A DNA stretch of 19,823 bases, taken from the IMG/VR virus record IMGVR_UViG_2585427795_000005, one strand, 5' to 3'. The notes beneath the pieces were generated by a model, which was not told the DNA's origin, did no database searches, and saw only the letters and a program-made list of their open reading frames with translations. Positions within the stretch are counted from its first letter, which is position 1, and each line of letters starts with the position of its first letter. The position numbers and the translations under genes were made by a program. Source of the DNA: a virus (taxonomy: Duplodnaviria; Heunggongvirae; Uroviricota; Caudoviricetes). Shown here in pieces: positions 981-18,873 of this stretch.

Positions 981-1167
981 GCGCCCCTACAAAAAAGAAA
1001 AGCCACCAGCGGCGGCTTAGCAATACAACTGAAGGTAGCGCCCGGTACTCAGACTGTGCCGTCCATGGAATATTTGAAAAGGGATCCATCCGTACCGGGC
1101 GTGTGATGATTCTGACTGAAGTCACTTGTCAGTTGTCAATCATTTATCATTAAAAATAATATATTTA

Positions 1168-1728
1168 TTAGTGCATGATGTTTGCCATCTCATAGGCGTC
1201 AGCCAGTAACTCCATCTCTGACTTGTTCAGCAGGGTGAATTCTTTCTTGCCTCCAACCACACCATCGGCATGAACAGGGACCAGCCAGGGGTATTTTGCT
1301 CTTACTTCAGCCGGTGCTGCATGCTGGTGGTGCCATCTACAAAGTGGCAATTGCTTTTTATGACAACCCGGCGCGGTACGACCAGCGATATGGTGCAGAG
1401 ACACCTCATTAGATATTACTCCATGCATATAGCAGGCAATGCAGGGGAGAGCGCCAAGAGCATTGGCGATGCGCCGTTCCTCCGCCGTTGGTGTTCTCCC
1501 CTTCAAGCCACGAGATTTTATTTTTACAGCGCTTTTCCGCGTTTTGCTGGCTGGTGGGCGCTCTTTCTGTTTAGCGATACGGCGGTCGATAGTATCTCGC
1601 ATTTTCTGATATTGAGATTCTCGCCAGACCGGATCAGCCAACTTCTCCCGTTGCCGAGCGATCGCTCGTTCTCTGGCTGCCTTCTGCCACTTGCGGCACT
1701 GTTCAATTTTTTGTTCGATTGTTTTCAT
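1168..1728 (-). CDS. ref: Ref, recombination enhancement function (HNH-type endonuclease)
   Basis: 186-aa translation MKTIEQKIEQCRKWQ...; Cys/His HNH-like motifs (CIACYMHG...HHIAG...CHKKQLPLCRWHH); size and position downstream of cre as in P1; C1 operator upstream. Confidence 0.85.
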   Translation of the reverse strand: MKTIEQKIEQCRKWQKAARERAIARQREKLADPVWRESQYQKMRDTIDRRIAKQKERPPASKTRKSAVKIKSRGLKGRTPTAEERRIANALGALPCIACYMHGVISNEVSLHHIAGRTAPGCHKKQLPLCRWHHQHAAPAEVRAKYPWLVPVHADGVVGGKKEFTLLNKSEMELLADAYEMANIMH

Positions 1729-1813: not shown

Positions 1814-1843
1814 GGCTCAATTATAGCAATCAATTAGAGCAAT
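1814..1843 (-). promoter_or_regulatory. C1 repressor operator upstream of ref, with a weaker overlapping tandem site, and a -10 TATAAT
   Basis: Minus strand ATTGCTCTAATTGATTG (1827..1843, 14/17 to consensus) and ATTGCTATAATTGAGCC (1814..1830); minus-strand TATAAT at 1820..1825. Confidence 0.65.
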
Positions 1844-1909
1844 GGTAGATATTTTGTTTATCGCGAATCACATTTTTTCACTTCAGTACCTGTGTGCTAT
1901 ACTCCTTCT

Positions 1910-1920
1910 TGATTGATTGG
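1910..1920 (-). repeat. Copy 1 of a recurring 11-mer (minus strand CCAATCAATCA), followed by AAGGAG
   Basis: Exact 11-mer also at 3609..3619 and 16947..16957; here followed by AAGGAG ... GTGAAAAAATG, but the ATG is immediately followed by TGA. Confidence 0.6.
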
Positions 1921-1949
1921 ATGCGGAATACAAACCCGCTCTTTTGTGC

Positions 1950-1979
1950 AGCCTGGCTCCTTGCCAGGCTTTTTTTTAT
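1950..1979 (+). terminator. Rho-independent terminator on the plus strand, convergent with the cra-position ORF
   Basis: Plus strand AGCCTGGC-TCCTT-GCCAGGCT followed by TTTTTTTTAT. Confidence 0.45.
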
Positions 1980-2287
1980 TTCATCATGGAAGCTGTTAAC
2001 GCTTTGGACCTTGCTGAACTGATTGTGAGGGCTTTGTTAACGAGCCCCAGAAATTCGACAAACTCAGACATCACTTTACCAAGACCGCGCCGTGCTTCTT
2101 CCTCGGTGGCATTCATTACGAAATGTTCAGCACTACGCATACTTTTGACAGGAAACGCAACGGATATTGAGTCAATATCAGGCATTCTATCGCTCAGCTT
2201 TACAGTGACAATGACGGCTGGCGACTGAATATTAGTGCTTACAGACAGCACTACATATTTTCCGTCGATGTTGAAATCCTTTCTCAT
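1976..2287 (-). CDS. Hypothetical 103-aa protein at the position of P1 cra (cre-associated), directly downstream of cre
   Basis: ORF with GGTGG just upstream of the ATG; preferred over the overlapping plus-strand ORF 1917..2228, which starts at TTG and reads through the terminator hairpin. Identity with Cra is positional only. Confidence 0.5.
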   Translation of the reverse strand: MRKDFNIDGKYVVLSVSTNIQSPAVIVTVKLSDRMPDIDSISVAFPVKSMRSAEHFVMNATEEEARRGLGKVMSEFVEFLGLVNKALTISSARSKALTASMMK

Positions 2288-2303
2288 ATGCCACCATAAA
2301 TAT

Positions 2304-2320
2304 CAAATAATTAGAGCAAT
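2304..2320 (-). promoter_or_regulatory. C1 operator between the cre stop and the downstream ORF
   Basis: Minus strand ATTGCTCTAATTATTTG (14/17); minus-strand CATAAT -10-like hexamer directly upstream at 2323..2328. Confidence 0.6.
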
Positions 2321-2337
2321 TTATTATGCGTTGACGG

Positions 2338-3369
2338 CTAATCACCATCTTCCAGCAGGCGCACCATTGCCCCCGTTTCACTATCCAGATTACGGATATA
2401 GTTCATGACAATATTTACGTTGGTCCAGCCACCAGCTTGCATGATCTCCGGTATTGAAACTCCGGCGCGGGCCATATCTCGCGCGGCTCCGACACGGGCA
2501 CTGTGTCCAGACCAGGCCAGGTACCTCTGACCAGAGTCATCCTTAGCCCCGTAAATCAATCGGTGAGTTGCTTCAAAAATCCCTTCCAGGGCGCGAGTTG
2601 ATAGCTGGCTGGTGGATGATGGCGAGGCAACACCATTTTTTCTGACCCGGCAAAACAAGTAGTTATTCGGATCATCAGCCACACCAGAGACAGAAATCCA
2701 TCGCTCGACCAGTTTAGTTACCCCCAGGCTAAGTGCCTTCTCTACACCTGCGGTGCTAACCAGCGTTTTCGTTCTGCCAATATGGATTAACATTCTCCCA
2801 CCGTCAGTACGTGAGATATCTTTAACCCTGATCCTGGCAATTTCGGCTATACGTAACAGGGTGTTATAAGCAATCCCCAGAAATGCCAGATTACGTATAT
2901 CCTGGCAGCGATCGCTATTTTCCATGAGTGAACGAACCTGGTCGAAATCAGTGCGTTCGAACGCTAGTGCCTGTTTTGCACGTTCACCGGCATCAACGTT
3001 TTCTTTTCGGATCCGCCGCATGACCAGTGAAACAGCGTTGCTGTCACTTGGTCGTGGCAGCCCGGACCGACGATGAAGCATGTTTAGCTGGCCCAAATGT
3101 TGCTGGATAGTTTTTACTGCCAGACCGCGCGCCTGAAGATATAGAAGATAATCGCGAACATCTTCAGGTTCTGCGGGAAACCATTTCCGGTTATTCAACT
3201 TGCACCATGCCGCCCACGACCGGCAAACGGACAGAAGCATTTTCCAGGTATGCTCAGAAAACGCCTGGCGATCCCTGAACATGTCCATCAGGTTCTTGCG
3301 AACCTCATCACTCGTTGCATCGACCGGTAATGCAGGCAAATTTTGGTGTACGGTCAGTAAATTGGACAT
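2338..3369 (-). CDS. cre: Cre site-specific tyrosine recombinase
   Basis: 343-aa translation MSNLLTVHQNLPALPVDATSDEVRKNLMDMFRDRQAFSEHTWK...MVRLLEDGD is recognisably P1 Cre with a few substitutions; loxP lies about 410 bp upstream. Confidence 0.97.
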   Translation of the reverse strand: MSNLLTVHQNLPALPVDATSDEVRKNLMDMFRDRQAFSEHTWKMLLSVCRSWAAWCKLNNRKWFPAEPEDVRDYLLYLQARGLAVKTIQQHLGQLNMLHRRSGLPRPSDSNAVSLVMRRIRKENVDAGERAKQALAFERTDFDQVRSLMENSDRCQDIRNLAFLGIAYNTLLRIAEIARIRVKDISRTDGGRMLIHIGRTKTLVSTAGVEKALSLGVTKLVERWISVSGVADDPNNYLFCRVRKNGVASPSSTSQLSTRALEGIFEATHRLIYGAKDDSGQRYLAWSGHSARVGAARDMARAGVSIPEIMQAGGWTNVNIVMNYIRNLDSETGAMVRLLEDGD

Positions 3370-3376
3370 TTAACAC

Positions 3377-3598
3377 TCAGATAATGGTTTTAAGTAAAGT
3401 GTACAGGATCGGCTCTGCCTTTACCTGTTTATGGTTCTCGTCATAGAAACGCCAGCGACCGCGCGTGCGTTCTATTTTCTCTTCACCGCGCGATAATGAC
3501 AGTTGACAACTATCACAATCAAACCCTTTTGCCCGCCAGTAACCACGGTTTTTCTCAAGCTCAATATGAGTGGACACTTTAGCAGCTGAATATCCCAT
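3377..3598 (-). CDS. Possible small ORF (73 aa) in the cre upstream region
   Basis: ATG preceded by AGAGGTG and by the conserved CCAATCAATCA element; ends 8 bp before the cre start. I do not recall an annotated P1 gene here, so it may be regulatory sequence. Confidence 0.25.
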   Translation of the reverse strand: MGYSAAKVSTHIELEKNRGYWRAKGFDCDSCQLSLSRGEEKIERTRGRWRFYDENHKQVKAEPILYTLLKTII

Positions 3599-3608
3599 TT
3601 TTCACCTC

Positions 3609-3619
3609 TGATTGATTGG
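3609..3619 (-). repeat. Copy 2 of the recurring 11-mer (minus strand CCAATCAATCA-GAGGTGAAAAATG)
   Basis: Exact 11-mer; followed by an SD and the ATG of the 73-aa ORF. Confidence 0.6.
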
Positions 3620-3779
3620 TGGTGCTAAGTGCGCTACGCGAAATCTGGAGCACTAACACTGCCAACATTTCGCAGATTTTACGTAGCGCAACCTTGATCA
3701 AATGATCACTATTTGACCTGATAAGGTATTGAACTGTATGGATTTACAGGTAAATTGATCATGTTCAATAACCCTTAAG

Positions 3780-3813
3780 ATAACTTCGTATAATGTATGC
3801 TATACGAAGTTAT
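3780..3813. other. loxP: loxP recombination site
   Basis: Exact ATAACTTCGTATA-ATGTATGC-TATACGAAGTTAT (13-bp inverted repeats around an 8-bp spacer). Confidence 0.98.
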
Positions 3814-3856
3814 TAGGTCCGAAGAGGAGTTTACGTCCAGCTGCGCACAAAAATCA

Positions 3857-3873
3857 AGAATTATTAGAGCAAT
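3857..3873 (-). promoter_or_regulatory. C1 operator in the immC region between loxP and coi
   Basis: Minus strand ATTGCTCTAATAATTCT (14/17). Confidence 0.65.
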
Positions 3874-3939
3874 AAATTTTGAGAGAAAAATCCCACTCCA
3901 CCAGCTAAAAACTGGATTGTTTTTCATAGTTGTTTGACA

Positions 3940-3956
3940 ATTGCTCTAATAAATTA
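3940..3956 (+). promoter_or_regulatory. C1 operator in immC, overlapping a TTGACA -35-like hexamer
   Basis: Plus strand ATTGCTCTAATAAATTA (16/17); TTGACA at 3935..3940; divergent with the 3857..3873 site. Confidence 0.7.
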
Positions 3957-4194
3957 TAGTTTTGCCGACGTTACGTAATACGACTTTGGATTCACTATTT
4001 AATGTGTCTTCAGCGTTGTAGAGCGGCTCAGAAGGAAATGAGCAAACAGGGAAACCTTATACAACGGCATTACAGCTATGCATTGCTCATCTTACACACA
4101 GCGCAATGTTGTTAGATTACCCCAGCATGGATCATGGGTGAAACAGTAGGTCAGAGCTTCAGGCTCTGTGTTGTCAATACAGTGAGGCATAATT

Positions 4195-4404
4195 ATGGCT
4201 TTCATTCAACCAACCATCGACGACGTTAGACATTGCTCTAACGCTTTATCTGTAGACCCTGCCGAAACCGACGCTGCCCGCGCCATTGCTGAACACTACT
4301 CAAAGATATCCAATCAGGAGTACCGCATCACCCAAGACGACCTGGATGACCTCACTGACACAATCGAATATCTCATGGCAACTAACCAGTTAGACTCACA
4401 ATAA
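4195..4404 (+). CDS. coi: Coi-like C1 inactivator
   Basis: 69-aa ORF directly upstream of c1, with TGAGG 8 nt before the ATG; size and position match P1 Coi. The sequence itself is not independently recognised. Confidence 0.65.
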   Translation: MAFIQPTIDDVRHCSNALSVDPAETDAARAIAEHYSKISNQEYRITQDDLDDLTDTIEYLMATNQLDSQ

Positions 4405-4420
4405 ATGCACTAATAAATCT
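4404..4420 (+). promoter_or_regulatory. Weak C1-operator-like site between coi and c1
   Basis: AATGCACTAATAAATCT (14/17 by my count); a TATAAT hexamer lies downstream at 4442..4447. Confidence 0.35.
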
Positions 4421-4514
4421 ATTATTTTTGTTTGATCCCTCTATAATATAGGTCAGTAATGACCGGTTTTCTCAGCCGGGCGTTATTGACCATGTCAATT
4501 CTGGAGGAGGATCA

Positions 4515-5366
4515 ATGATAAATTATGTCTACGGCGAACAACTGTACCAGGAGTTCGTCAGCTTCAGGGATCTCTTTCTAAAAAAAGCTGTTGCACGCGC
4601 CCAACACGTTGATACAGCCAGCGACGGTCGTCCTGTACGCCCGGTTGTCGTTCTACCGTTCAAAGAAACTGACAGCATTCAGGCTGAAATTGATAAATGG
4701 ACTTTAATGGCGCGGGAACTGGAACAGTACCCAGACCTCAATATCCCAAAGACTATTTTATATCCAGTGCCTAACATCCTTCGCGGTGTGCGTAAGGTTA
4801 CAACTTATCAGACAGAGGCTGTGAACAGCGTCAACATGACCGCTGGCCGCATTATTCATCTGATTGATAAGGACATTCGCATCCAGAAAAGCGCGGGGAT
4901 CAATGAGCACAGTGCGAAATACATAGAGAACCTGGAAGCAACAAAAGAGCTAATGAAGCAGTACCCGGAGGATGAAAAATTCCGTATGCGTGTACACGGC
5001 TTTAGCGAAACAATGTTGCGCGTCCATTACATTTCCAGTAGCCCTAACTACAATGATGGTAAATCAGTTAGTTACCATGTGCCGCTGTGTGGTGTGTTTA
5101 TCTGCGATGAAACTCTCCGTGATGGAATCATCATCAACGGTGAATTCGAGAAAGCAAAATTTAGCCTTTATGACTCTATAGAACCGATCATCTGCGACCG
5201 CTGGCCGCAGGCAAAAATATATCGCCTGGCAGATATTGAAAATGTAAAAAAACAAATTGCCATCACTCGCGAAGAGAAAAAGGTCAAATCAGCCGCATCA
5301 GTTACGCGCAGCCGTAAAACTAAGAAGGGGCAGCCAGTAAACGACAACCCCGAAAGCGCGCAATAG
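4515..5366 (+). CDS. c1: C1 repressor of lysis (primary immunity repressor)
   Basis: 283-aa translation MINYVYGEQLYQEFVSFRDLFLKKAVARAQHVD...; strong GGAGGAGG SD; its cognate operator consensus recurs through the window. Confidence 0.9.
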   Translation: MINYVYGEQLYQEFVSFRDLFLKKAVARAQHVDTASDGRPVRPVVVLPFKETDSIQAEIDKWTLMARELEQYPDLNIPKTILYPVPNILRGVRKVTTYQTEAVNSVNMTAGRIIHLIDKDIRIQKSAGINEHSAKYIENLEATKELMKQYPEDEKFRMRVHGFSETMLRVHYISSSPNYNDGKSVSYHVPLCGVFICDETLRDGIIINGEFEKAKFSLYDSIEPIICDRWPQAKIYRLADIENVKKQIAITREEKKVKSAASVTRSRKTKKGQPVNDNPESAQ

Positions 5367-5390
5367 TTTCTATCCGGCATGGTCAATGAG

Positions 5391-6875
5391 TTATTCATTA
5401 AGCCATGCCAGAGCTTCATCAACCTGCGCTTCGTCTTCGACGCTAAGCACTTCATCCTGGGGAACATAATCCGCCAGCATAGCGAAACAATATGTATCCC
5501 AATGGTCTGGTGAGTGCAGGTTGAGTTTTTTCTTCATATCCTCCTTACTCATCACCTTCCATTGACCTGCGGAGTTAATCCCTACAGGGATTTTCGACGC
5601 TTCCTCAATAGTTTCATTACCCTTATCCAGTCTCATACGACCAGATTTTACGGCCTCTGCGGCTTGAACGTTGGCATAAGCACGTTTATCAAAGTACAGG
5701 CTCTTATCCTCACGGCTATGCATCTTTTTACCCCAGCGTATACGCTGTACGGTAATACCATAATACTCGTACATCAGATCCGCTGTTGCTTTACCCAGGC
5801 CATCGCCGTCTATCGCTATGGTGATATTTGGGAATCGCTCAGGATTACATTCTGCGAAAATTTTGGCGGCAAGCTGCGTTTCTGTAACGTCTGTGTATTC
5901 CAGCATTCGATAGTTGATTACACGGCGTTTGTTTCGCTGGCCGGACACCATCATGATATTGATAACGGACTTATCCCTTCCCGTACCACCAGCAACGTCT
6001 ACACATGCAAGCCAGCCCCATCCTTTGGCAATCTTGACTTTCCGCCGCGTTGCACGTTCAACCTCATCACGTCCAAGAAGGAAGCCATCCTGTGATTTAG
6101 GGAATAGGCCGCGTACCTTAATCATGTACATAGGGTTATCGCGCCCGCCGTACTCCGCCAGCTTCATTTTGATAAATGCTGGCGTTACCAGCGGTGATTC
6201 CTCACTGTTAAGCGTGATCGCCGTATAAACGCCATCAGGGTTACCAGGACGCTTGGCCAGTTTATGGTGAGTATCGTAGAAATAGCCGCTTGGGCGTGTA
6301 GGCTGTGACAGTAATAAGATGCGGTTATCCTGTCCGGTAAGAGCACCGGTGATGATACCGAAAGCTCTATCACTGACACCGGAGGCTTCATCGATAATAT
6401 ACAGAAGATGATCTGCGTGTTCACCGGCGAGAGCTTCTTCACTTCCCAGACGAAAGCCCTTCGGCACTACAGTCCATACACCTTTACCAGTAACCTCATA
6501 GAAAGCGGTTTCTGTCAGAACAAAATAATCAGCAAGCCATGGAAAACGGCTGGTGGCAGTAGCCCAGTTTATCTTGATGTACTTGAAAATACCGGTCATT
6601 ACCTGCTGAATTTTGTTCGCAACGATAATGGCGCGGGCACCGGGATACATGATTATGAACAACATGATCATGATAGAAGTCATGTCTGATTTTCCGGTAC
6701 CGTGACCAGACGAAACAGATGTCTTGCTACCCTGTTCCTGCACAGACTCAATAATCAGATCCTGCTGCCAGGTAGGTGTTTTGCCGAACAAAACATCAGC
6801 GGCCGCAATCCAGTCATAACGATATAGCGCCACCAGCTCGCGCCAACGTGGATCCGTTACGCAACTTCTGGCCAT
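5391..6875 (-). CDS. pacB: PacB, terminase large subunit
   Basis: 494-aa ORF translationally coupled to pacA (TAATG overlap at 6875); convergent with c1 as in P1. Confidence 0.88.
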
Positions 6876-8068
6876 TAATCATCATCCCCGTATAGCTTGC
6901 GGGTAACTTCTTCGTCTTCCTCCTCGTCTTCGTCCAGGTCTTGTTCCAGCCATGGGTCGTTTGATACACCTTCAGTATCAACATCTCCATAACCGCCTGT
7001 ATCAACGATATCGGCGATTTCTTCCCTACGCTGCTCAATCCACAATGCGGCATCGGCGCGGCGGTTGGCGGCCCGTTCTCGCGCAACTTTGTCCAGATCT
7101 TCAAGAGAAGGGCCACCGACGGCTGTTTGCCTTTCCTCATCATCGGTATTGGTCTTAGGAGCACGCAGATCGGCTTTGATTTGCTCCAGCATCAGGGGCG
7201 GCACTTTCCCGCCATGCGCCTCGATGAATTCAGCTGCTTCCAGCACTGACCAGTTATTTTCACGCTTTCGTTCGTATGCCAGCTTAACAATGCCAGCTTG
7301 CCCCATAGACAAAGCGTGCTTTTCCGCCTCCCGGCTTTCTTTTCGATAGTTATTCCGGATGCTGTAAATGGTGTTGATCAGGCTGCTTATCTGCGCGGAA
7401 CAGCTGTTTAGCATGCTCGCGATACGGTATTCAGGCGGAGTACCTTCATCATCGTCTTTTTGCTGATCGCGCATTTCCTGCACCAGGCGAATACACGTAT
7501 CCCTGGCGTTCTCCAGCATAAGGAGATGAGAAAGAGACTTTTCAAGAAGAGTGGTTTCCAGAACATCGGCCCCGGACCGACGCAACATAGCGCGCGCGGC
7601 CTTCCGCGCTTCAACGTTATCTATCAGGTAATCGCCAGCTTCGAATTCAAAGCGTTCACCATCATCATCCAGGGTGTCGCGTTCCAGGCGATCACGTAAG
7701 GTCCGGTGGGCGCGGGTGATCACGTCATGATCATCTGAACGATCATTTATGCGCTTATTTTGGCGCTTCGCATTCTCGACTGCGGCACTGATAACGGCAT
7801 TAACTCTCTGTTTTTCCGCTATTTCAGCCGCAATATGATCACCTGCATGTTGATCATTAGAGTGATCAATGATCATGCTTTTTAGTGGCTTCCTGACTGG
7901 CTTATTTGGCTTGCGGCTGTCCGCAGTCCTGGTGTCTTCTTTGAAGGCACGGAGATAACGACGTGCGGTATTAGGGTTAAGATTAAACTCGGCGGCATAC
8001 TGTGCGATGGTGTAACCACCATCTCGCGCCAGGCGAGCAAAATTCTTCTTGTGATCGTCCCAGGTCAC
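6875..8068 (-). CDS. pacA: PacA, terminase small subunit / pac recognition protein
   Basis: 397-aa ORF with GTG start preceded by AGGAAG; N-terminal HTH-like region; acidic C-terminal tail; the pac site lies inside the coding sequence. Confidence 0.88.
7717..7875. other. pac: pac packaging site: seven TGATCA/G hexamers (three plus four) in about 160 bp, each carrying a Dam GATC
   Basis: Hexamers at 7717, 7728, 7740 (CGATCA) and 7826, 7851, 7863, 7870; an additional CGATCA at 7689 lies outside. Confidence 0.85.
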
Positions 8069-8153
8069 TTATGCTTCCTTTCGTAAAAACTCTTTTTGAC
8101 GCGAGGGTAACGAAAGTCACATGTCAAAAGGCCCGGAACGGGCAAGCAATCAA

Positions 8154-8606
8154 TCAGATACGTGCGGATGTGGCATTACCGTAATGACGGTGCTGACGGG
8201 CCACCCTATTGAAAAGTTGACGCGCCATTACCCAAGGCTGGTGCTCCCGGCGTTCCTTTTCGTCCTGCGTCATATAGAGTTCGTTCTGGAGTTTTTCATC
8301 AAACCGGCGCGGAGCGCGGCTACGGCGAAAGAATTCAGGATTCAGAGAGTGGATCTGAAATCTACGTGGGCGTGTACTGTCATCAATCAAAACAGACGAA
8401 TACTTAGACACAGCGATAGCCTTTAAGCGCAGATAAACATCGCGCTTATCGACATCCAGATGCGGGTATTCCTTTTCAAGAATTGCTGCGAGTTCTTTCG
8501 CTGATAGAAGAGATTTAGTGCGGATCATGTAATCCGCAATCTCGTACGATGTTATTCGTGAGTGATTTATTTCCATGAAGTGGCGTCCCTGCCAGTTAAG
8601 TAACAT
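8154..8606 (-). CDS. lpa: Lpa-like late promoter activator (P1 gene 10 position)
   Basis: 150-aa ORF immediately upstream of pacA; AGGTGA SD; minus-strand TTGACA at 8630..8635 and a C1 operator at 8677..8693 upstream. Identification is positional. Confidence 0.65.
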   Translation of the reverse strand: MLLNWQGRHFMEINHSRITSYEIADYMIRTKSLLSAKELAAILEKEYPHLDVDKRDVYLRLKAIAVSKYSSVLIDDSTRPRRFQIHSLNPEFFRRSRAPRRFDEKLQNELYMTQDEKERREHQPWVMARQLFNRVARQHRHYGNATSARI

Positions 8607-8676
8607 CCTGTCACCTACTGATTAGCCCATGTCAACTAATCAACGTCGAATATAATACCCTCGATTAAAGAAATAG

Positions 8677-8693
8677 CAATACATTAGAGCAAT
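8677..8693 (-). promoter_or_regulatory. C1 operator upstream of lpa
   Basis: Minus strand ATTGCTCTAATGTATTG (14/17), with an adjacent TAGCAAT partial site as at the ref operator. Confidence 0.6.
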
Positions 8694-8694
8694 T

Positions 8695-9738
8695 TTATCT
8701 AACACTCGACGAATGACTTGTGATAGCGCCGACTCCAAGCGCGTAATCAAAGAACAATCGTTGATGCATCGCCAGCCTACCGTGCGTCTTCTCCCAATTA
8801 TCGCGGTCACGCTCAATATCACGCTGGCATGACTGGCACAGAGGAATAGCATAAATGTCATGCGCGCATAATCGACTATGACGAACGATATAAGGCGTAA
8901 TGTGAGCGCCAGCTCCCGCAGCTCCACAGCCACAGCATGGACGGGAAGCCACAAAGTCCATGTACTCGGGCAATTTTAGCGATTGAAGTTTTGGTATCTT
9001 GAAATGCGCCATACCTGGGTCGGAGTCAACATCCACAGGGCATACTTTTGCACGCATCGGCGCGGCGCGTTCTTCCATCATCTGAACATATGCTGTAGCG
9101 CGATCGTCATACGGGCGAATATCCGCCTCTTTCAGAGGTCCGCTATCCTGCGGAGTAGCCTTCATCTTATTTATTGATATGCGGCAGACTTCTTCCGGCA
9201 TCAGGTGCATCATGTTGCGCATGAAAGCCCACCAGCACAGCTCCTGAATACTTAAATCATGGCTATTTGAAAGGCCCATTTCCTGACGGGCGACATCCAG
9301 TATCCAGTTAACGCGATTATTGTGCAGCGTTTCTTTCAGCTCATTAAAACCACGCATCCGGTAATGGTTATCGTGATGCCAGCACAACAACACCGCGCTA
9401 TTGTCTCGTTCAGCGTGGACAATATGGTTGTCACACCAACTACGATCTGCGGCCTGGCATTGACCCTCTTTCCTACGCAACCACGCCACCAGCGCGTCAA
9501 TTCCACCAATACGGCGAAACAGTTCATCGCTGTTAAAAAACGGCTGCAACGCCTCATTTGTTGCCATGGTTTGCTCGGTAACAACGAGGCCGTCTTCCAT
9601 GTGCTCGATTAACTCACGCGGCACCGGCTCCATAATAAATTTACGGCCAGCCTCCACCAGCTTTCTGACCTCCTGATCCACTTTGAACGTGGCGAGGCCA
9701 AGCTCTTTCTGTACAAAGGGAGTAATTACGGCTTTCAC
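8695..9738 (-). CDS. Hypothetical Cys/His-rich protein (347 aa) between doc and lpa; possible metal-binding or HNH-like nuclease motifs
   Basis: Long ORF with GTG start preceded by AAGGTG; motifs [10 protein letters not shown]...CWHHDNH and RPCCGCG...H...LCAHD...LCQSCQ. Confidence 0.6.
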
Positions 9739-9765
9739 ATCACACCTTTAATCACTGATTGGGCT

Positions 9766-9945
9766 TTATCTGCTGCCCGGCATTCTCTGTTTAAGCACAA
9801 CCATTTCCTGACGGCATAACACAGCAATAGCTGTCCTGGCACCAATTTGCTTACCAACCAGGTATTGCTTTACCTCGCGGCGACTCACGCCATCAAGAAG
9901 CATCTTTAACGCTTCACGGGACAATTTGTTGTATTTACGTGCCAT
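9766..9945 (-). CDS. Possible small HTH-like protein (59 aa from the ATG at 9945)
   Basis: MARKYNKLSREALKMLLDGVSRREVKQYLVGKQIGARTAIA... resembles a helix-turn-helix domain; starts 5 nt after the doc stop; no clear SD. Confidence 0.3.
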   Translation of the reverse strand: MARKYNKLSREALKMLLDGVSRREVKQYLVGKQIGARTAIAVLCRQEMVVLKQRMPGSR

Positions 9946-9949
9946 TAAT

Positions 9950-10330
9950 CTACTCCGCGGAACCATACAATCTACGTAACGTGTCGGCGACAGAAGATAC
10001 AGATATCTCTCCGGTCGCAGCCCCTACGGTAAGGTCTGCCAGTTCAGGTGAATCAAATACCTGCACCCCGTTACGGCGTAGAAATAACAGCGCACTGTTT
10101 AGCGCGGTACGCTTATTGGCATCATTGAATATATGCCCTCTCGCTGTAGCCACCAGGTAGGTGGCGGAGACTTCGAAAAGGTCGGTGATCTCTTCGTAGG
10201 CAACTCTGGCCTGAACTCTCCCGATAATGGCCTCTGCCCTACCTGGATCTGACATTCCCGGCAGGCCGCCGTAGCGGTTTATATTCGCATCATGAAGCGC
10301 AATAAGTTCTTCCGGTGATATATGCCTCAT
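9950..10330 (-). CDS. doc: Doc toxin (death on curing), Fic-fold kinase
   Basis: 126-aa translation [33 protein letters not shown]...; overlaps the phd stop by 1 nt. Confidence 0.92.
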
Positions 10331-10551
10331 TATCGGTTAACCAGTTCCTTGTTGGTGGAGTCCAGGGTGTCAAACAGGGATGCAAATTCAGCATCCAGCG
10401 CCGCTTTTTTGTAGGCTTCGAAAGTAGCCTTGCTGACAATTACTGCTGGCTCACGGCCTCTGCGGGTGATTTCAACCTCTTCCCCGGCCTCAACATTGTT
10501 GAGCACTTCAGAAAGGTTGCCGCGCGCGGTACGGAAGTTAATGGATTGCAT
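10330..10551 (-). CDS. phd: Phd antitoxin (prevents host death)
   Basis: 73-aa translation [39 protein letters not shown]...; GAGGT SD. Confidence 0.92.
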
Positions 10552-10558
10552 AAATACC

Positions 10559-10588
10559 TCGTGTACTCGTTATGTGTACACAATTATA
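10559..10588 (-). promoter_or_regulatory. phd/doc promoter-operator: two GTGTAC-containing palindromic Phd binding sites downstream of a -10 TATAAT
   Basis: Minus strand TTTATAATTGTGTACACATAACGAGTACACGAGG followed by the phd ATG; matches the phd operator sequence as I recall it. Confidence 0.75.
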
Positions 10589-10727
10589 AACTTCACAGGC
10601 ATAAAGCACCAGCACTTTGCGGCTTAACAAACCTCTAGGCAGGTCATTCGTAGCCTAATGTCCGAACTGCTAAAGCATCCAAGTTGCTGTAGAATCACAT
10701 CCAATTACATAAGCCTGAAATAAGTGG

Positions 10728-12286
10728 ATGAAAATGACAAGTATTCAACAACGTGCAGAGCTTCATCGTCAAATCTGGCAAATTGCTAACGATGTCAGAG
10801 GTTCGGTCGATGGATGGGATTTTAAGCAATACGTTCTGGGCGCGCTTTTCTACCGTTTTATCAGCGAAAATTTTTCCAGCTATATTGAAGCCGGTGATGA
10901 CAGCATCTGTTATGCGAAACTGGATGACAGCGTAATTACTGATGACATTAAAGACGATGCCATCAAAACCAAAGGCTACTTCATCTACCCAAGTCAGCTT
11001 TTCTGCAACGTAGCTGCGAAAGCAAATACCAATGACAGACTGAATGCAGATTTAAACAGCATCTTCGTTGCTATCGAAAGTTCTGCTTACGGTTACCCTT
11101 CAGAAGCTGACATCAAAGGTTTGTTTGCTGATTTCGATACCACCAGTAACCGCCTGGGTAACACCGTTAAGGATAAAAATACCCGCCTGGCCGCGGTTCT
11201 GAAAGGGGTTGAAGGATTAAAACTTGGCGACTTCAACGAACATCAGATTGACCTGTTCGGCGATGCCTATGAGTTCCTGATTTCTAACTATGCGGCGAAT
11301 GCCGGTAAGTCCGGCGGCGAGTTCTTTACACCGCAGCACGTCTCTAAGCTGATTGCACAACTGGCAATGCACGGCCAGACCCACGTTAACAAAATCTACG
11401 ACCCGGCAGCAGGTTCCGGTTCGCTGTTGTTGCAGGCTAAAAAACAGTTTGATGACCATATCATCGAAGAAGGCTTTTTTGGTCAGGAGATCAACCATAC
11501 GACCTATAACCTGGCGCGTATGAACATGTTTTTGCACAACATCAACTACGACAAGTTTGATATCAAGTTGGGCAATACGCTGACTGAGCCGCACTTCAGA
11601 GATGAAAAACCGTTTGATGCCATCGTTTCTAACCCGCCGTATTCGGTGAAATGGATTGGCAGCGATGACCCGACGCTGATTAACGATGAACGTTTTGCCC
11701 CGGCTGGCGTTCTGGCCCCCAAATCCAAAGCTGACTTTGCGTTTGTATTACATGCGCTGAACTATCTTTCTGCCAAAGGTCGTGCTGCGATTGTCTGCTT
11801 CCCGGGCATTTTTTACCGTGGCGGCGCGGAGCAGAAAATCCGTCAGTATCTGGTTGACAATAACTATGTCGAAACCGTGATTTCACTGGCACCGAACCTG
11901 TTCTTTGGCACCACCATTGCCGTAAATATTCTGGTGCTGTCTAAACATAAAACGGATACCAAAGTTCAGTTTATTGACGCCAGCGAACTGTTCAAAAAAG
12001 AGACTAACAACAACATCCTGACCGATGCCCATATCGAAAAAATTATGCAGGTATTTTCCAGCAAAGAAGATGTTGCCCATCTGGCAAAATCTGTCGCGTT
12101 TGAGGCCGTTGTCGCGAATGACTATAACCTGTCAGTGAGCAGCTATGTAGAAGTGAAAGATAACCGCGAAACTATCGATATTGCTGAGCTAAATGCTGAG
12201 CTGAAAACCACGGTCAGCAAAATCGACCAGTTGCGTAAAGATATTGATGCGATTGTGGCTGAAATTGAAGGCTGCGAGGTGCAGAA

Positions 12287-12290
<4 letters not shown>
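10728..12290 (+). CDS. hsdM: Type I restriction-modification methyltransferase subunit HsdM (type IC, EcoR124-like)
   Basis: 520-aa ORF with AdoMet motif DPAAGSG and catalytic NPPY; overlaps hsdS by ATGA. The true start may be the second ATG at 10734. Confidence 0.93.
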
Positions 12291-13528
<1,238 letters not shown>

Positions 13529-13649
13529 TTGACCATTATTACAGACCGAACCATCGTAACATCCGGTCTGTATATAGACTATTTTTTACGCGCCGGAAGT
13601 CACTCTTAACGCCTTTCCGGCCCTTGCCAGGCGGCACAAAGGATGCGCT

Positions 13650-16600
13650 ATGACTCATCAAACACACACCATTGCTGAATCCAATAACTTTATCGTCCTT
13701 GATAAGTACATCAAAGCTGAGCAAACAAGCGACAGCTACCAGAGCGAATCGGACCTGGAACGTGAACTGATTCAGGACCTGCGGAATCAGGGTTATGAAT
13801 TTATTTCCGTAAAATCACAGTCGGCAATGCTGTCTAATGTTCGGGAACAGCTTCAGAGCCTCAATGGTGTGATGTTTAATGACAGCGAGTGGCGGCGCTT
13901 CACGGAGCAGTATCTGGACAACCCCAGCGATGGTATTCTGGATAAAACCCGTAAAATCCATATCGACTATATCTGCGACTTTATTTTTGACGACGGGCGA
14001 CTTGAGAACATCTATTTGATAGATAAAAAGAATCTCATGCGCAATAAGGTGCAGATTATCCAGCAGTTTGAACAGACGGGTTCTCATGCTAACCGTTATG
14101 ACGTCACGATCCTGGTTAATGGTTTACCGCTGGTGCAAATCGAACTAAAAAAACGCGGGGTGGCGATTCGTGAGGCTTTCAACCAGATACATCGTTACAG
14201 TAAAGAGAGTTTTAACAACGAAAATTCCCTGTTTAAGTATCTGCAACTGTTTGTCATTTCTAACGGCACCGATACCCGTTATTTTGCCAACACGACAAAG
14301 CGCGATAAAAACAGTTTTGACTTCACCATGAATTGGGCGAAATCAGACAATACGCTGATTAAAGACCTCAAAGACTTTACCGCTACCTTTTTCCAGAAAC
14401 ATACTCTGCTGAATGTTCTGGTGAACTACAGCGTTTTTGACAGTAGTCAGACGCTACTGGTGATGCGACCGTACCAGATTGCCGCCACCGAGCGCATTCT
14501 GTGGAAAATTAAGAGTTCCTTTACAGCGAAGAACTGGTCAAAACCGGAAAGCGGTGGGTATATCTGGCACACTACCGGTTCTGGTAAAACCCTCACCAGC
14601 TTTAAAGCCGCGCGTCTGGCAACAGAGCTGGACTTTATTGATAAAGTCTTCTTTGTGGTCGACAGGAAAGACCTCGATTACCAGACCATGAAGGAATATC
14701 AGCGTTTTTCGCCAGACAGCGTCAACGGCTCGGAAAATACCGCAGGCCTTAAACGAAATCTGGATAAGGACGATAACAAAATTATCGTCACTACTATTCA
14801 GAAACTCAATAACCTGATGAAAGCAGAAAGCGACCTGCCTGTATACAATCAGCAAGTGGTGTTTATATTTGATGAATGTCACCGCAGCCAGTTTGGAGAA
14901 GCGCAGAAAAACCTGAAGAAGAAATTCAAACGCTATTATCAGTTTGGTTTTACCGGCACCCCTATTTTCCCGGAAAATGCCTTAGGCTCAGAAACGACCG
15001 CCAGCGTATTTGGTCGTGAATTGCATTCGTATGTAATTACCGATGCGATTCGTGATGAAAAAGTGCTCAAATTCAAGGTGGACTACAACGATGTGCGGCC
15101 ACAGTTTAAGTCTTTAGAGACAGAAACTGACGAGAAAAAACTAAGTGCGGCTGAAAATCAGCAGGCGTTTCTTCATCCCATGCGTATACAGGAAATCACG
15201 CAATATATTCTGAATAATTTCCGCCAGAAAACCCACCGCACCTTCCCTGGCTCAAAAGGTTTTAATGCTATGTTGGCAGTGAGCAGCGTGGATGCTGCAA
15301 AAGCCTATTACGCGGCGTTTAAACGGTTACAAGAGGAAGCAGCTAATAAATCGGCTACCTATAAACCGCTGCGTGTTGCGACAATCTTCTCCTTTGCTGC
15401 CAATGAAGAACAAAATGCCATTGGTGAAATTTCCGATGAAACTTTTGATACCAGCGCAATGGACAGCAGTGCTAAAGAGTTTCTTGACGCTGCAATTCGT
15501 GAGTATAACAGCTATTTTAAAACTAACTTCAGCACCGACGGTAACGGTTTTCAGAACTACTATCGCGATTTAGCCCAACGGGTTAAAAATCAGGATATCG
15601 ATCTGTTAATTGTCGTGGGGATGTTTTTAACTGGCTTCGATGCTCCAACATTGAACACGCTATTCGTCGATAAAAACCTGCGTTTTCACGGCTTGATGCA
15701 GGCATTTTCCCGCACCAACCGTATTTATGATGCAACTAAAACCTTCGGTAATATCGTCACTTTCCGGGATCTGGAACGCTCAACTATTGATGCCATAACG
15801 CTGTTTGGTGACAAAAACACCAAAAATGTGGTTTTAGAAAAGAGTTATGCAGAGTATATGGAAGGCTTTACTGATGCTGCCACTGGTGAAGCTAAGCGCG
15901 GCTTTATGGCAGTAGTTTCAGAACTGGAACAACGGTTCCCTGACCCTGCCAGTATTGAAAGTGAAAAAGAGAAGAAAGACTTCGTTAAACTGTTTGGTGA
16001 ATACCTGCGTGCCGAGAACATCCTGCAAAACTATGATGAATTTGCCACGCTGAAAGCCCTGCAACAAATCGATCTTAGCGATCCTGTTGCAGTAGAAAAA
16101 TTCAAAGCAGAACATTATGTGGATGATGAAAAGCTCGCTGAATTGCAAACAATTCGTCTCCCTGCTGATCGCAAGATTCAGGATTATCGTTCTGCCTATA
16201 ACGATATTCGCGACTGGCAGCGCCGTGAGAAAGAAGCTGAGAAAAAAGAGAAATCAACCACTGACTGGGATGACGTAGTTTTTGAGGTCGATTTGCTGAA
16301 GTCTCAGGAAATAAACCTGGATTATATCCTTGGACTGATTTTCGAACACAACAGACAAAATAAAGGCAAGGGCGAAATGATCGAAGAGGTTAAACGCTTA
16401 ATTCGTTCAAGCCTAGGGAACCGTGCTAAAGAGGGCCTGGTGGTCGATTTTATTCAGCAAACGAACCTGGATGATTTACCGGACAAAGCCAGCATCATTG
16501 ACGCATTCTTTACGTTTGCTCAACGCGAACAGCAACGTGAAGCAGAAGCATTGATAAAAGAAGAAAATCTCAATGAAGATGCAGCAAAACGCTATATTCG

Positions 16601-16766
16601 CACGTCTTTAAAACGCGAATATGCCACAGAAAATGGCACAGAATTAAACGAAACATTACCAAAACTTAGTCCGTTGAATCCGCAATATAAAACGAAAAAA
16701 CAGGCAGTTTTCCAGAAAATCGTCTCGTTTATTGAGAAGTTTAAAGGCGTAGGCGGAAAAATATAG
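13650..16766 (+). CDS. hsdR: Type I R-M restriction subunit HsdR (type IC)
   Basis: 1038 aa; nuclease motif region (D...IELK), Walker A TGSGKT, DECH box; AAAGGA SD; separated from hsdS by a 121-bp gap consistent with its own promoter. Confidence 0.93.
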
Positions 16767-16785
16767 CCCAATTCGTGTTTTTCTT

Positions 16786-16813
16786 GCGGGTTCTTAATTA
16801 AACCCGCAAGAGA
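16786..16813. other. 10-bp-stem hairpin just downstream of hsdR
   Basis: CTTGCGGGTT-CTTAATTA-AACCCGCAAG, T-run on the 5' side only. A terminator role is uncertain. Confidence 0.3.
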
Positions 16814-16845
16814 CCGTGGGGTTTCAAATGGCTAATATACTCCCC

Positions 16846-16932
16846 TTACCCATGCGCGACGATGCCGCCAAAAGTGATAGAGAACAGCCAGAAATAGATC
16901 GCGGCCATAATGATTTTGAATGCCGTGTTCAT
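16846..16932 (-). CDS. Candidate small hydrophobic protein (28 aa, single predicted transmembrane helix)
   Basis: Hand-read ORF MNTAFKIIMAAIYFWLFSITFGGIVAHG, below the track's size cutoff; AGGAG SD 8 nt upstream; conserved CCAATCAATCA leader; C1 operator upstream at 17015..17031. Confidence 0.35.
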   Translation of the reverse strand: MNTAFKIIMAAIYFWLFSITFGGIVAHG

Positions 16933-16946
16933 ATTTTCAGCTCCTG

Positions 16947-16957
16947 TGATTGATTGG
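16947..16957 (-). repeat. Copy 3 of the recurring 11-mer (minus strand CCAATCAATCA-C-AGGAG-CTGAAAATATG)
   Basis: Exact 11-mer immediately upstream of the SD of the 28-aa ORF. Confidence 0.6.
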
Positions 16958-16959
16958 AT

Positions 16960-16990
16960 ACATGCCGCGCCTTGCGGCATGTTTTTATTT
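16960..16990 (+). terminator. Rho-independent terminator on the plus strand (9-bp stem, then TTTTTATTT)
   Basis: ACATGCCGC-GCCTT-GCGGCATGT followed by a T-run; lies in the 5' leader of the minus-strand small ORF and is convergent with it. Confidence 0.55.
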
Positions 16991-17014: not shown

Positions 17015-17031
17015 TGATTTATTAGAGCAAT
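17015..17031 (-). promoter_or_regulatory. C1 operator upstream of the 28-aa ORF
   Basis: Minus strand ATTGCTCTAATAAATCA (15/17), followed by TTTAAAAC; overlaps the stop codon of the upstream ORF. Confidence 0.65.
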
Positions 17032-17537
17032 TATTGTTGATGAAGAAGCGCATTTTCATACTCCCTGACCATTAACGTAAGCACGCCGTGCCTCCTGAAA
17101 ACACGCGCCACTTCAATCTTATCTTCCAGCGCGAACGCAATTTTGCTTATACCAATTTTCTTAAGGAGATCAATCTTTGCTGGGCCGTCATTTCTGTCAT
17201 CGGTGGCAGGACGCATAGATAGCAAAGGCTCAGCCCCGTTTGTTACGTACTTCCGCAGCCAGGCTCGTGTTTTATCCCTTGCGATCTCACAGCGCCCGGT
17301 TACAAACCAGACCGTGTAAACGTTAAATAACTGGCGCACCATATCAATAACTGGAGTGATTGGAGTATCGGTGTCACAGGCGAGATTAAACTCGTTCCAG
17401 TCCTTTGTTAATGCACCTTTACCTGGTGGCGGAAGCAAATGCAGTCTGTCTTCAGTTGCCTCTGATATTGTTCCATCAATATCGACTATGACGATATACG
17501 GACGTTCCTGGTGTGCATGTTTATTGAAAATACTCAA
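17031..17537 (-). CDS. HAD-superfamily phosphatase-like protein (168 aa), possibly a polynucleotide 3'-phosphatase or acid phosphatase
   Basis: HAD motif I IVIVDIDGT (DxDGT), motif II VWFVTGR, lysine and DD motifs (ARDKTRAW, ATDDRND); TTG start 4 nt after a strong AGGAGG SD. Confidence 0.6.
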   Translation of the reverse strand: MSIFNKHAHQERPYIVIVDIDGTISEATEDRLHLLPPPGKGALTKDWNEFNLACDTDTPITPVIDMVRQLFNVYTVWFVTGRCEIARDKTRAWLRKYVTNGAEPLLSMRPATDDRNDGPAKIDLLKKIGISKIAFALEDKIEVARVFRRHGVLTLMVREYENALLHQQ

Positions 17538-17609: not shown

Positions 17610-18725
17610 TCAGCGGACGTAAATAGTGCCGCCGTTCTCTTTTTCCCATGCATCGCTACGTGCATAGCAAACATCGAGAAGTCTTCTTGCCGCTGTTTCC
17701 TCTAAACCCAATTCGACAACCAACTGCTCATGACGGCGGGTAACCACATCAAACAGAGTATGCAACCCTTTAGTTGCCAGATCATCAATGAATTCCGGTT
17801 CGAACGGCAGCTCTGCATCTGCCAACATAACCTCTTGCGCCCACTCAACTCGACGGACCAATTCCGGGCGGCGGCTTTCCATCTCTTTACAGATCAATTC
17901 ATGGAAGAACTCTACCCAACCTTCCGGCTGGAACTCGCGGAAAATGGCCAACGGCTGGAAGTTTGGCATCAACCATTCGTTGATTCGGATATCAATGGCA
18001 TAGCCCATGTCGCAGCAGAACTGATAAGCAAAGTCCAGCTTAGAAACGATATAAGGACGCTCGTTATTGAACTCTTTAGGCGATGAGATCCCATAAGCCA
18101 GGAGGCGCGGGAAGAAGGAGATTTGCCCTAACGTCGGATGAAGTTTGCTTGCAGGGAAACGGCGCTCAGTAATGCCATACATTTCCTTCTTGAGCGTCGC
18201 AAATTTGGCATTCTCATTAACCAGCGCGGTAACCTCTGCTTTTTTATTAGCAAATGCCACGCGCGCTTCGCTTGCATCTTTAATAGTTTTTTTGAGCTGT
18301 TGGTTAAGGTCGGCGACCTGCTTACGCAGTTCCTGTCGCTCGCTTTTAGCTTTGTTATAGCGTTTCTCAAGGTTAAAAGGATCAAGTTTCATGATCTCTT
18401 TATATTGAGATTTTAGCGTTGAAATCTGTGAGTTCCGCAGTTCAACCATCGCGGTCATTTCATTGAGTTTTGTTTCCAGCTCAATGCTTATACGTTCGGC
18501 ATTATCAGCACGCTGGTTGGCGTCATGCGTCGCATCGTCGATCGCGTCCTGTTGCTGGCGTTTCAAATGTTCAATTTGCAGCTGAAGCTCTTCAATTTCT
18601 TTACCCTTCAGACCGAGATCCAACTGCATATTTTCAGCTGCATCTACCAGGGAGTTATGGCTATCAGCTTCTGCGTTATAAACATCAATAAGCTGTGCGT
18701 GAAGCATCTCCGCTGACTGAACCAC
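17610..18725 (-). CDS. Hypothetical protein (371 aa): N-terminal coiled-coil region and an uncharacterised C-terminal domain
   Basis: Long ORF; N-terminal half rich in heptad-like E/K/Q/L segments. Start uncertain (GTG at 18725 or ATG at 18707, neither with a good SD). Confidence 0.6.
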   Translation of the reverse strand: MVQSAEMLHAQLIDVYNAEADSHNSLVDAAENMQLDLGLKGKEIEELQLQIEHLKRQQQDAIDDATHDANQRADNAERISIELETKLNEMTAMVELRNSQISTLKSQYKEIMKLDPFNLEKRYNKAKSERQELRKQVADLNQQLKKTIKDASEARVAFANKKAEVTALVNENAKFATLKKEMYGITERRFPASKLHPTLGQISFFPRLLAYGISSPKEFNNERPYIVSKLDFAYQFCCDMGYAIDIRINEWLMPNFQPLAIFREFQPEGWVEFFHELICKEMESRRPELVRRVEWAQEVMLADAELPFEPEFIDDLATKGLHTLFDVVTRRHEQLVVELGLEETAARRLLDVCYARSDAWEKENGGTIYVR

Positions 18726-18873
18726 ATTATCAAAAAAACGTGCTGTGAGGTCATCACAACTAACGCGGCGTTGCGCGGCCCGGATGTTCTGGATAATGGC
18801 CGGGATACCGGCATTCAGGACATCAGGGATAGATACATTTTCGATTGATTGCTTTTATGCTGAAGTGCTCATT

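Follow-up and report, generated by a model that had tools for sequence, protein, structure and literature searches.

A putative small RNA gene in P1-family phage-plasmids and its candidate pairing sites before cra and a 28-residue open reading frame

The window analysed here is a 19,823-nucleotide (nt) stretch of DNA of a P1-family phage-plasmid (IMG/VR record IMGVR_UViG_2585427795_000005), in which the 11-mer CCAATCAATCA occurs three times without a mismatch, at 1910-1920, 3609-3619 and 16947-16957 (copies 1, 2 and 3), always on the minus strand. We think it probable, although well short of assured, that copy 1 belongs to the gene of a phage small RNA (sRNA) that acts in trans by occluding ribosome-binding sites, and that copies 2 and 3 are the sites with which this RNA pairs. 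One site lies in the leader of cra, with which the cra-cre operon begins, the other in that of an open reading frame (ORF) of 28 amino acids (aa). The evidence consists of the sequence anatomy of the three copies, their conservation in four lineages of P1-like elements, a fold common to the predicted RNAs, and covariation between these RNAs and the bases that flank the sites.

P1 has been studied heavily and is the source of Cre-lox, and the c8-ref spacer in which copy 1 lies is still without an annotated feature. The only small regulatory RNA annotated in the portion of the P1 record examined is c4. If the proposal is true, a post-transcriptional layer would be added before the cra-cre operon, and a function would be assigned to the leader of the unannotated 28-aa ORF. 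The system would then be a small regulon consisting of an RNA and a 9-nt address label, re-targeted in each lineage, for example to ref and to a ParM-like gene. Enterobacteriaceae commonly carry P1-like phage-plasmids, which have been published as vehicles of resistance genes; between 700 and 870 plasmid records match the two regions tested.

The three copies

An earlier, sequence-only reading of this DNA had treated the three copies as equivalent leader elements, each composed of the 11-mer, a Shine-Dalgarno (SD) sequence and the tail TGAAAA(A/T)ATG. The copies and their common orientation are confirmed, and the two ORFs are also as described. Copy 2 is followed by GAGGTG-AAAA-ATG of the 73-aa ORF that is cra, and copy 3 by CAGGAG-N9-ATG of the 28-aa ORF (16846-16932). 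In both cases the SD follows the copy after 0-2 nt and the ATG after 11-15 nt. After copy 1 come AAGGAG and, 25 nt further, GAAGTGAAAAAATGTGA; this copy heads no ORF, as the closest ATG runs straight into TGA. The flanks in the window are as claimed, but the tail and the AAGGAG of copy 1 are lost in the divergent lineages, where the latter is replaced by GCGAATG, GCGAACG or GAAGTC, and TGAAAAATG, which had been counted as part of the conserved element, is not conserved. The equivalence of the copies had to be given up, since copy 1 is the predicted 5' end of a regulator, with a conserved extended -10 element and a terminator. An antisense-RNA target at translation starts, one of the functions that had been suggested, is favoured for copies 2 and 3.

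When one mismatch is allowed, a fourth site appears at 8146-8156 on the plus strand, and at least four matches of this quality to CCAATCAATCA were obtained in none of 200 dinucleotide shuffles. The 8-mer CAATCAAT occurs six times, which was likewise seen in none of 200 shuffles. The excess noted earlier therefore stands, while the expectation, given as under one, is 1.47, and the last copy is displaced by one base to 18844-18851. The 8-mer at 1827-1834 is the only one that falls inside the annotated C1 operator Oref, as had been recognised, but it is unrelated to the element. A C1 operator (17 base pairs (bp), containing ATTGCTCTAAT) was also rejected as the identity of the 11-mer, because all three copies lack ATTGCTCTAAT.

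Megablast assigns the window to the P1 family, with Escherichia phage vB_EcoM-673R5 as the best match (97.5%) and with P1 and P7 at ~95% across the shared parts. P1 (AF234172), the plus strand of which corresponds to the minus strand of the window, has all three copies at 186-196, 1885-1895 and ~84367-84377, in identical orientation, and its 88-kb genome contains no other exact copy. No annotation lies on any copy in the P1, P7 or 673R5 records.

Copy 1 as a predicted RNA gene

The plus-strand sequence of copy 1 is TGATTGATTGG. It is preceded, with a spacing of six bases, by the extended -10 sequence TGcTATACT, and 30 nt on its 3' side there is an 8-bp GC-rich hairpin followed by eight T's. 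The orientation of this terminator is wrong for c8, and the plus strand offers no gene for it. The simplest reading of copy 1 is that a predicted RNA of ~68 nt starts at the motif. Such an RNA would have a free 5' end, the eleven bases of which are the exact complement of copies 2 and 3. The motif had also been suggested to be the 3' end of a family of plus-strand small RNAs. This does not hold for copy 1, which is a predicted 5' end.

In the proposed mechanism, the gene would occupy the c8-ref spacer on the plus strand of the window (the minus strand of P1), convergent with c8. Transcription would start from the extended -10 promoter (1875-1903) at about position 1910/1911, and the terminator would end the RNA near 1978. 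The order of its parts would be a free (U)GAUUGAUUGG, a small stem-loop, a short linker and the intrinsic terminator. The 5' 9-13 nt would then pair with CCAAUCAAUCA, which at cra and at the 28-aa ORF precedes the SD by 0-2 nt. Because this pairing touches the SD, it should occlude the 30S site, so that 30S binding would be blocked and translation of both reading frames would be lowered. In the other lineages the same pair of RNA and motif may be used on ref, on the first or second gene of the cre operon, on a ParM-like gene and on a small membrane protein.

The candidate gene is intergenic, with a predicted promoter and a predicted intrinsic terminator of its own, both retained with this orientation in the four lineages; its putative targets are 9-13 nt perfect matches that precede start codons by 0-16 nt. 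No C1 operator overlaps with the RNA promoter, the -35 of which is separated from the annotated Oref operator by more than 30 nt, so that the RNA would probably be expressed in the lysogen.

A search of the whole window with Rfam cmscan at E ≤ 1 returned only SorX at 1902-1976, with 22.6 bits against a gathering score of 46.6. The predicted RNA is unannotated in the P1, P7 and 673R5 records. In the searchable literature, we found no sRNA of P1 or of a phage-plasmid beyond c4, although an earlier mention in the P1 genome paper is possible, and no phage paper that contains the 11-mer. The only P1 RNA regulator named in a preprint that describes P1vir in an hfq mutant is c4.

Conservation across lineages

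Further lineages were found by Cre-based searches, Cre being 64-80% identical across lineages. They consist of the Salmonella elements pCFSAN058588 and p21-SA00706 (L101 and L243), a metagenomic pair (L105 and L242) and a contig of Pantoea PSNIH6 (L093), the Cre of which is 64% identical; together with P1 and the window, these are the four lineages referred to throughout. Two more viral scans and one metagenome pattern scan yielded only L105 and L242 as additions. Plasmids with a Cre that is ~40% identical were considered as a further lineage and rejected as not P1-like, the one inspected being an IncFIB plasmid.

All four lineages carry the same unit a few hundred bases downstream of cre, on the opposite strand. 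Its parts are, in order, TGnTATA(C/G)T, 6-7 nt, GATTGATTG, 27-31 unrelated nt, and GCAG with a GC-rich stem-loop and a U-tract, which is always on the plus-strand side. The seed GAUUGAUUG is the same in every lineage. In the P1 clade, all 78 loci that were anchored on neighbouring sequence, and not on the motif, carry this seed, CAATCAATCA and the -10 element, with variation only in the base that flanks the 9-mer.

The four predicted RNAs also share a fold, in which free 5' nucleotides are followed by stem-loop 1, a linker and the terminator, with z between -3.1 and -3.9 relative to shuffles. The first 8-9 nt are unpaired in both the minimum free energy and the centroid folds. Stem-loop 1 occupies the same position in every lineage with an unrelated sequence each time, and MAFFT could not set these sequences in register. 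The terminator stem is 100% paired across 12 variants, and two of its eight pairs have compensatory double changes (C-G to G-C and U-A to C-G), giving a covariation score that was reached by none of 500 shuffles.

Natural variants were also observed. The seed is expanded to (CAAT)3 in the S. flexneri record NZ_CP055201 (L007), giving CCAATCAATCAATCA. In the Salmonella plasmid NZ_CP077708 (L009/L240), c8 and the RNA gene are cleanly lost. In E. coli JAATUR010000062 (L091), the cra site has a C-to-T change (CCAATCAATTA), which would make a G-C pair G-U.

Target leaders and their covariation with the RNA

Copy 2 is an 11-nt perfect complement of the 5' end of the predicted RNA. The site is unchanged in 80 of 80 P1-type loci, collected from IMG/VR via Cra, which are too alike to inform on it. 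At copy 3, the perfect complementarity in the window extends to 13 nt (ATCCAATCAATCA). The predicted leader folds leave the motif unpaired in a loop of 11 nt, which is closed by pairs between the GG of the SD and CC or CACC, and the site would therefore be accessible.

The cre operon does not begin with the same gene in each lineage: its first gene is cra in P1, a 68-aa ORF of PHROG 19934 in the Salmonella pair, a 353-aa ORF of PHROG 7674 in L105, and a 188-aa ORF in Pantoea. In every lineage CAATCAATCA is found 10-16 nt before the start codon of this gene. When the four leaders are aligned, the only conserved islands are the CAATCAATCA motif and one arm of an inverted repeat. L243 has a second copy of the motif before the second gene of the operon. 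The conserved 28-aa membrane ORF, which adjoins the type IC hsd cassette in the window and has no match to a Pfam or PHROG family, is retained at the same location in the Salmonella pair (58% identity over 24 aa between L101 and the window). There, the motif core again precedes it, although the hairpin, the spacer and the flanks differ. The motif is also found at other genes. In the metagenomic pair it directly abuts the ATG of ref (PF16786, E = 4.5e-41), in Pantoea it precedes a ParM-like ORF (a weak Pfam match, E = 0.001, below threshold), and in L101 it precedes a 50-aa membrane ORF. Altogether, an ATG-opened frame of at least 28 codons starts no more than 16 nt downstream of 10 of the 16 copies of CAATCAATC in four loci, as compared to 13% of positions under the null (P = 5e-6), and the RNA genes themselves make up four of the other six.

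The bases next to the 9-mer follow the RNA of the same lineage. In P1 and the window, nt 10-14 of the RNA are GGAUG and the target bases upstream of CAAUCAAUC are AUCC, UUCC and CACC. In L101, with GGUUU, they are AAACC twice, GAACC once and AUAU once, and in L105, with GGCUC, they are AGCC and GGCC. The Pantoea RNA has UGUGG, with U10 in place of G10, and in both of its targets the C of the other lineages is replaced by A or G. Past the 9-mer, pairing extends on average by 3.0 nt with the cognate RNA and by 0.76 nt with the RNAs of other lineages, and the true assignment of RNAs to targets is at the top of the 24 permutations. RNAduplex energies permit long internal loops and were not used as evidence. 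The general view that the sequence-only reading took of the motif, as real, conserved, non-random and placed beside translation starts and hairpins, is borne out.

A possible extra pairing site is the copy of CAATCAATC at the beginning of the pmgS frame. L101 carries CAATCAATC at the same pmgS codons, with 13 nt complementary to its own RNA, but amino-acid conservation could explain this equally well.

The hairpins described at the three copies are all present: plus-strand terminators at 1950-1970 with T8 and at 16960-16982 with T5, and in the cre-operon leader an inverted repeat, the arms of which are 18 nt long and 89% complementary. The hairpin at copy 3 is not a conserved sRNA terminator, because the T-run is missing in L101. 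On the plus strand it is the terminator of hsdR, and it is also a hairpin in the 5' untranslated region of the 28-aa ORF. The left arm of the cre-leader repeat and the -10 of the annotated promoter P3cre overlap. In all four lineages the right arm, CAGA(A/T)TTC(A/G)CG(T/C)AGCGC, is kept together with nearby GATC sites; an attenuator, a processing site and a protein site are candidate roles for the repeat. Elsewhere it is seen at ~13375-13433 in L101 and ~8607-8663 in L105, while L093 has only the right arm (~7629-7648).

Alternative explanations

Several observations weigh against the proposal. Of 300 dinucleotide shuffles of the window, 40 (13%) contain some exact 11-mer in three copies on one strand, so that the count by itself is weak; it was dropped as sufficient proof, and the case has to be made from context and conservation. 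Promoter-like sites number 27 in the window and 31 in shuffles, which leaves the conservation of the -10 as the argument for the promoter, and the -35 is retained only in P1 and the Pantoea element, not in the other two lineages. In the P1 clade, A or T can replace G at position 11 of the RNA, but the cra site is the same in 80 of 80 loci. Copy 1 could also be read as another leader site, given that a sense-strand ORF begins 37-45 nt downstream of it in the three non-P1 lineages. Both target sites are unchanged in NZ_CP077708, from which c8 and the RNA gene are lost; this case may be taken as neutral, because the plasmid is otherwise nearly identical to P1. A U-rich stretch of the Hfq class I type is clear only in the P1 version of the RNA. 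With only four lineages, the permutation test has a floor of 1/24. The host sRNA OmrA (E. coli K-12 NC_000913.3, 2976102-2976189) shares AUUGAUUGG with the predicted phage seed, and it could be the true partner of the sites. Finally, it is important to note that the RNA gene and its transcription, the pairing and the repressive effect are all read from sequence, as any dependence on a chaperone would be.

The strongest competitor is that all copies, including copy 1, are leader sites for a trans-acting factor encoded elsewhere, either a phage RNA-binding repressor or OmrA. We regard this as unlikely. In its favour, every copy is on the sense strand of rightward transcripts and beside a hairpin, copy 1 is placed upstream of an ORF in the non-P1 lineages, the targets survive in a plasmid without the RNA gene, and OmrA has a perfect complement of 11 nt (CACCAAUCAAU) in the cra leader (3609-3622) and one of 9 nt (16947-16955) in that of the 28-aa ORF. 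What it does not account for is AsTATAnCA (the antisense of TGnTATAsT), located 6-7 nt from copy 1 in all lineages, and the U-tract of the adjacent terminator, which is always on the antisense side. Moreover, the target flanks follow nt 10-14 of the local RNA and no fixed host sequence, and the Pantoea targets are without the C that the G of OmrA requires. OmrB, the paralogue of OmrA, matches 6 nt only, and there is no known candidate protein.

The two remaining alternatives account for less. One of them accepts the RNA but confines its action to cis, as an antisense to c8-to-ref read-through or by a convergent-transcription block, and takes copies 2 and 3 for unrelated, cis-acting, unstructured A/C-rich standby or enhancer sequences upstream of SDs. 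The RNA would indeed be fully complementary to any c8 read-through transcript, CA-rich unstructured leaders are generally known to favour ribosome loading, and the motif is predicted to be unpaired. A generic enhancer, however, would not require an exact 9-mer amid diverged surroundings, and it would predict neither the reappearance of the motif at new genes in each lineage nor flanks that co-vary with the RNA, and we consider this scenario improbable. It is very improbable, in our judgement, that the repeats are by-products of mosaic evolution without regulatory function, arising from microhomology or from slippage-prone (CAAT)n at module junctions. The copies are near boundaries, with P1 homology resuming at 16842 and plasmid homology stopping at ~16925, the module of c8 and copy 1 is deleted in NZ_CP077708, CCAATCAATCAATCA occurs in one S. 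flexneri plasmid, and triple 11-mers arise in 13% of shuffles. However, the breakpoints are 22-105 nt off the motif, and the orientation, the SD adjacency, the conservation at 64% Cre identity and the antisense promoter and terminator are left unaccounted for.

Copy 3 was also considered as part of a type I toxin-antitoxin system, which it resembles in that it heads a 28-aa hydrophobic ORF with an adjoining terminator hairpin that points in the opposite direction. This was rejected. There is no promoter-like site on the plus strand at 16800-16960, that is, none is predicted in or beyond the ORF, and the opposite-strand terminator is absent in L101, which has no U-tract there; the hairpin is that of hsdR.

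Relation to known systems

A trans-acting RNA with a 5' seed and an intrinsic terminator belongs to a well-known class, which includes OmrA and OmrB of the host and, in another form, c4 of P1. Two traits would be unusual here: the RNA is predicted to target recombination and maintenance genes of the element itself, and the 9-nt label is found on different genes in each lineage.

OmrA is a host envelope-stress sRNA. The predicted RNA resembles OmrA and OmrB in its free 5' seed, its internal hairpin, its terminator with a U-tail and its proposed pairing at or near the SD. It differs in that the shared 9-mer is at the 5' end of the phage RNA and begins at nt 10 in OmrA, and in that the gene is phage-borne with a body unrelated to OmrA, with no match to the Rfam OmrA-B family at E ≤ 1. 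The overlap of the seeds could reflect cross-regulation between host and phage, seed mimicry or a chance overlap of 9 nt. A wider possibility, which we find doubtful, is that the phage RNA and OmrA converge on one motif placed before the Cre operon, Ref, a partition ATPase and small membrane proteins. If this were true, a mobile post-transcriptional regulon would tie recombination and plasmid maintenance to host signalling, and the phage RNA might also reach host targets of OmrA.

The c4 RNA is likewise a short structured P1 RNA, and it blocks icd-ant translation by short pairing over the ribosome-binding site. It is encoded in immI (48255-48459 of AF234172), and its annotated targets a2 and b2 are on its own transcript, the icd-ant mRNA. 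It is also cut out of that transcript. The predicted RNA, in contrast, would have its own promoter and terminator, a place in the c8-ref spacer, a single 5'-terminal seed and dispersed targets. No motif copy is present near c4 in P1 and no sequence similarity to c4 was seen. An assignment as a c4-type antisense RNA was rejected, the predicted RNA being outside immI and the c4 sites having no copy of the motif.

DicF of Qin is a base-pairing sRNA encoded by a prophage. IsrK of Gifsy-1 (PMC4825925) and 24B_1 of a Shiga toxin (Stx) phage (PMC10732415) are further examples of base-pairing sRNAs encoded by a prophage and a phage, respectively. In all three cases a small RNA gene on a temperate phage regulates by base pairing, as proposed here, but they act mainly on host genes or on one neighbouring phage gene. 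The predicted RNA would instead have several targets of its own phage-plasmid (cra-cre, ref, partition and small membrane proteins), and the pair of RNA and motif is conserved across the phage-plasmid family.

Gene order and further observations

The window has the gene order of P1-family phage-plasmids, mat-ref-c8-cre-cra-lox-c1-pacBA-lpa-doc/phd-type IC hsd-pap-pmgS. The features are collected in Table 1, where the gene names are taken from the P1 annotation and the ORF list.

Table 1. Positions in the window of the predicted RNA gene, its candidate pairing sites and the surrounding features.
Feature	Position	Strand	Remarks
mat	383-1006	-	
ref	1168-1728	-	
C1 operator Oref	~1822-1840		
Predicted sigma-70 promoter: TTTTCA, 17 nt, TGcTATACT (extended -10)	1875..1903	+	scan, 9/12 matches; TG before -10
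Copy 1, TGATTGATTGG, predicted single-stranded 5' seed	1910..1920	+	predicted start T1910 or G1911
Predicted stem-loop 1 (GCGG/CCGC core), then U-rich linker CUCUUUUGUGC	1919..1942	+	fold, z = -3.1
Predicted intrinsic terminator, AGCCTGGC-tcctt-GCCAGGCT + T8	1950..1978	+	stem 1950-1970
c8	1976-2287	-	
cre	2338-3369	-	
cra (73 aa), first gene of cra-cre operon	3377-3598	-	P1 annotation, ORF list; PHROG 804, function unknown
Copy 2, predicted pairing site in cra leader	3609..3619	-	abuts SD GAGGTG (3603-3608); cra ATG 3598
Imperfect inverted repeat, 18-nt arms, cre-operon leader	3630..3647 / 3673..3690	-	11 nt upstream of copy 2; 89% complementary
loxP	~3780-3815		
c1	4515-5366	+	
pacB	5391-6875	-	
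pacA	6875-8068	-	
lpa	8154-8606	-	
doc	9950-10330	-	
phd	10330-10551	-	
Type I hsdM/S/R cassette	10728-16766	+	
28-aa hydrophobic ORF, MNTAFKIIMAAIYFWLFSITFGGIVAHG	16846..16932	-	unannotated in P1, where it is just upstream of pmgT
Copy 3, predicted pairing site in leader of 28-aa ORF	16947..16957	-	1 nt before SD AGGAG (16941-16945); ATG 16932
9-bp hairpin, 2 nt upstream of copy 3	16960..16982 (+T5 on plus strand)	-	on plus strand, terminator after hsdR
pap	17031-17537	-	
pmgS	17610-18725	-	
Possible extra pairing site, CAATCAATC	18843..18851	-	~20 nt into pmgS frame (codons NQSI in P1)

At 10552-16842, the type IC hsd cassette stands where P1 has humD-lxr-hot-upfMNO-pmgTUV, and the P1 record notes that the flanks of its humD-to-pmgT segment match DNA beside the hsd loci of EcoDXXI and R124/3. 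The window is matched only at 16800-16925 by a class of probably R124-like plasmids that are conjugative or mobilizable, which means that this homology ends within the 28-aa ORF, 22 nt short of copy 3. Inside hsdS (12287-13528), three tandem ACCGCTGAGCTT units at 12848-12883 on the plus strand each encode TAEL. In type IC HsdS proteins the number of such repeats fixes the spacer length of the recognition sequence, and three of them would presumably resemble the EcoR124II/EcoDXXI state, not that of EcoR124I.

The one-mismatch copy at 8146-8156 has the polarity of the RNA seed and overlaps the stop codon of lpa, reading TGATTGATTGC in the minus-strand sense. Downstream of it there is a hairpin, GCCCGttcCGGGC, followed by CTTTT, an arrangement that resembles a seed plus terminator at the 3' end of an mRNA. 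It is kept in close relatives of P1, but it was rejected as an sRNA of the 3' untranslated region, as L101 shares only TGATTGA.

A second exact 11-mer, AATGGCGCGGG, also occurs three times, at 4277-4287 on the minus strand and at 4706-4716 and 6627-6637 on the plus strand, in the coi/imc region, c1 and pacB. The expected count is 0.01, and three copies were found in none of 200 shuffles.

The start of pmgS at 18855-18872 on the minus strand reads ATG AGC ACT TCA GCA TAA, with a stop at codon 6, while P1 has ATG ATC ACT TCA GCA CAA AAC at this place. The stop is 3 nt upstream of the CAATCAATC copy listed in Table 1. The longest pmgS frame left in the window starts at GTG 18725 and has 371 aa, compared to 420 aa in the P1 coding sequence.

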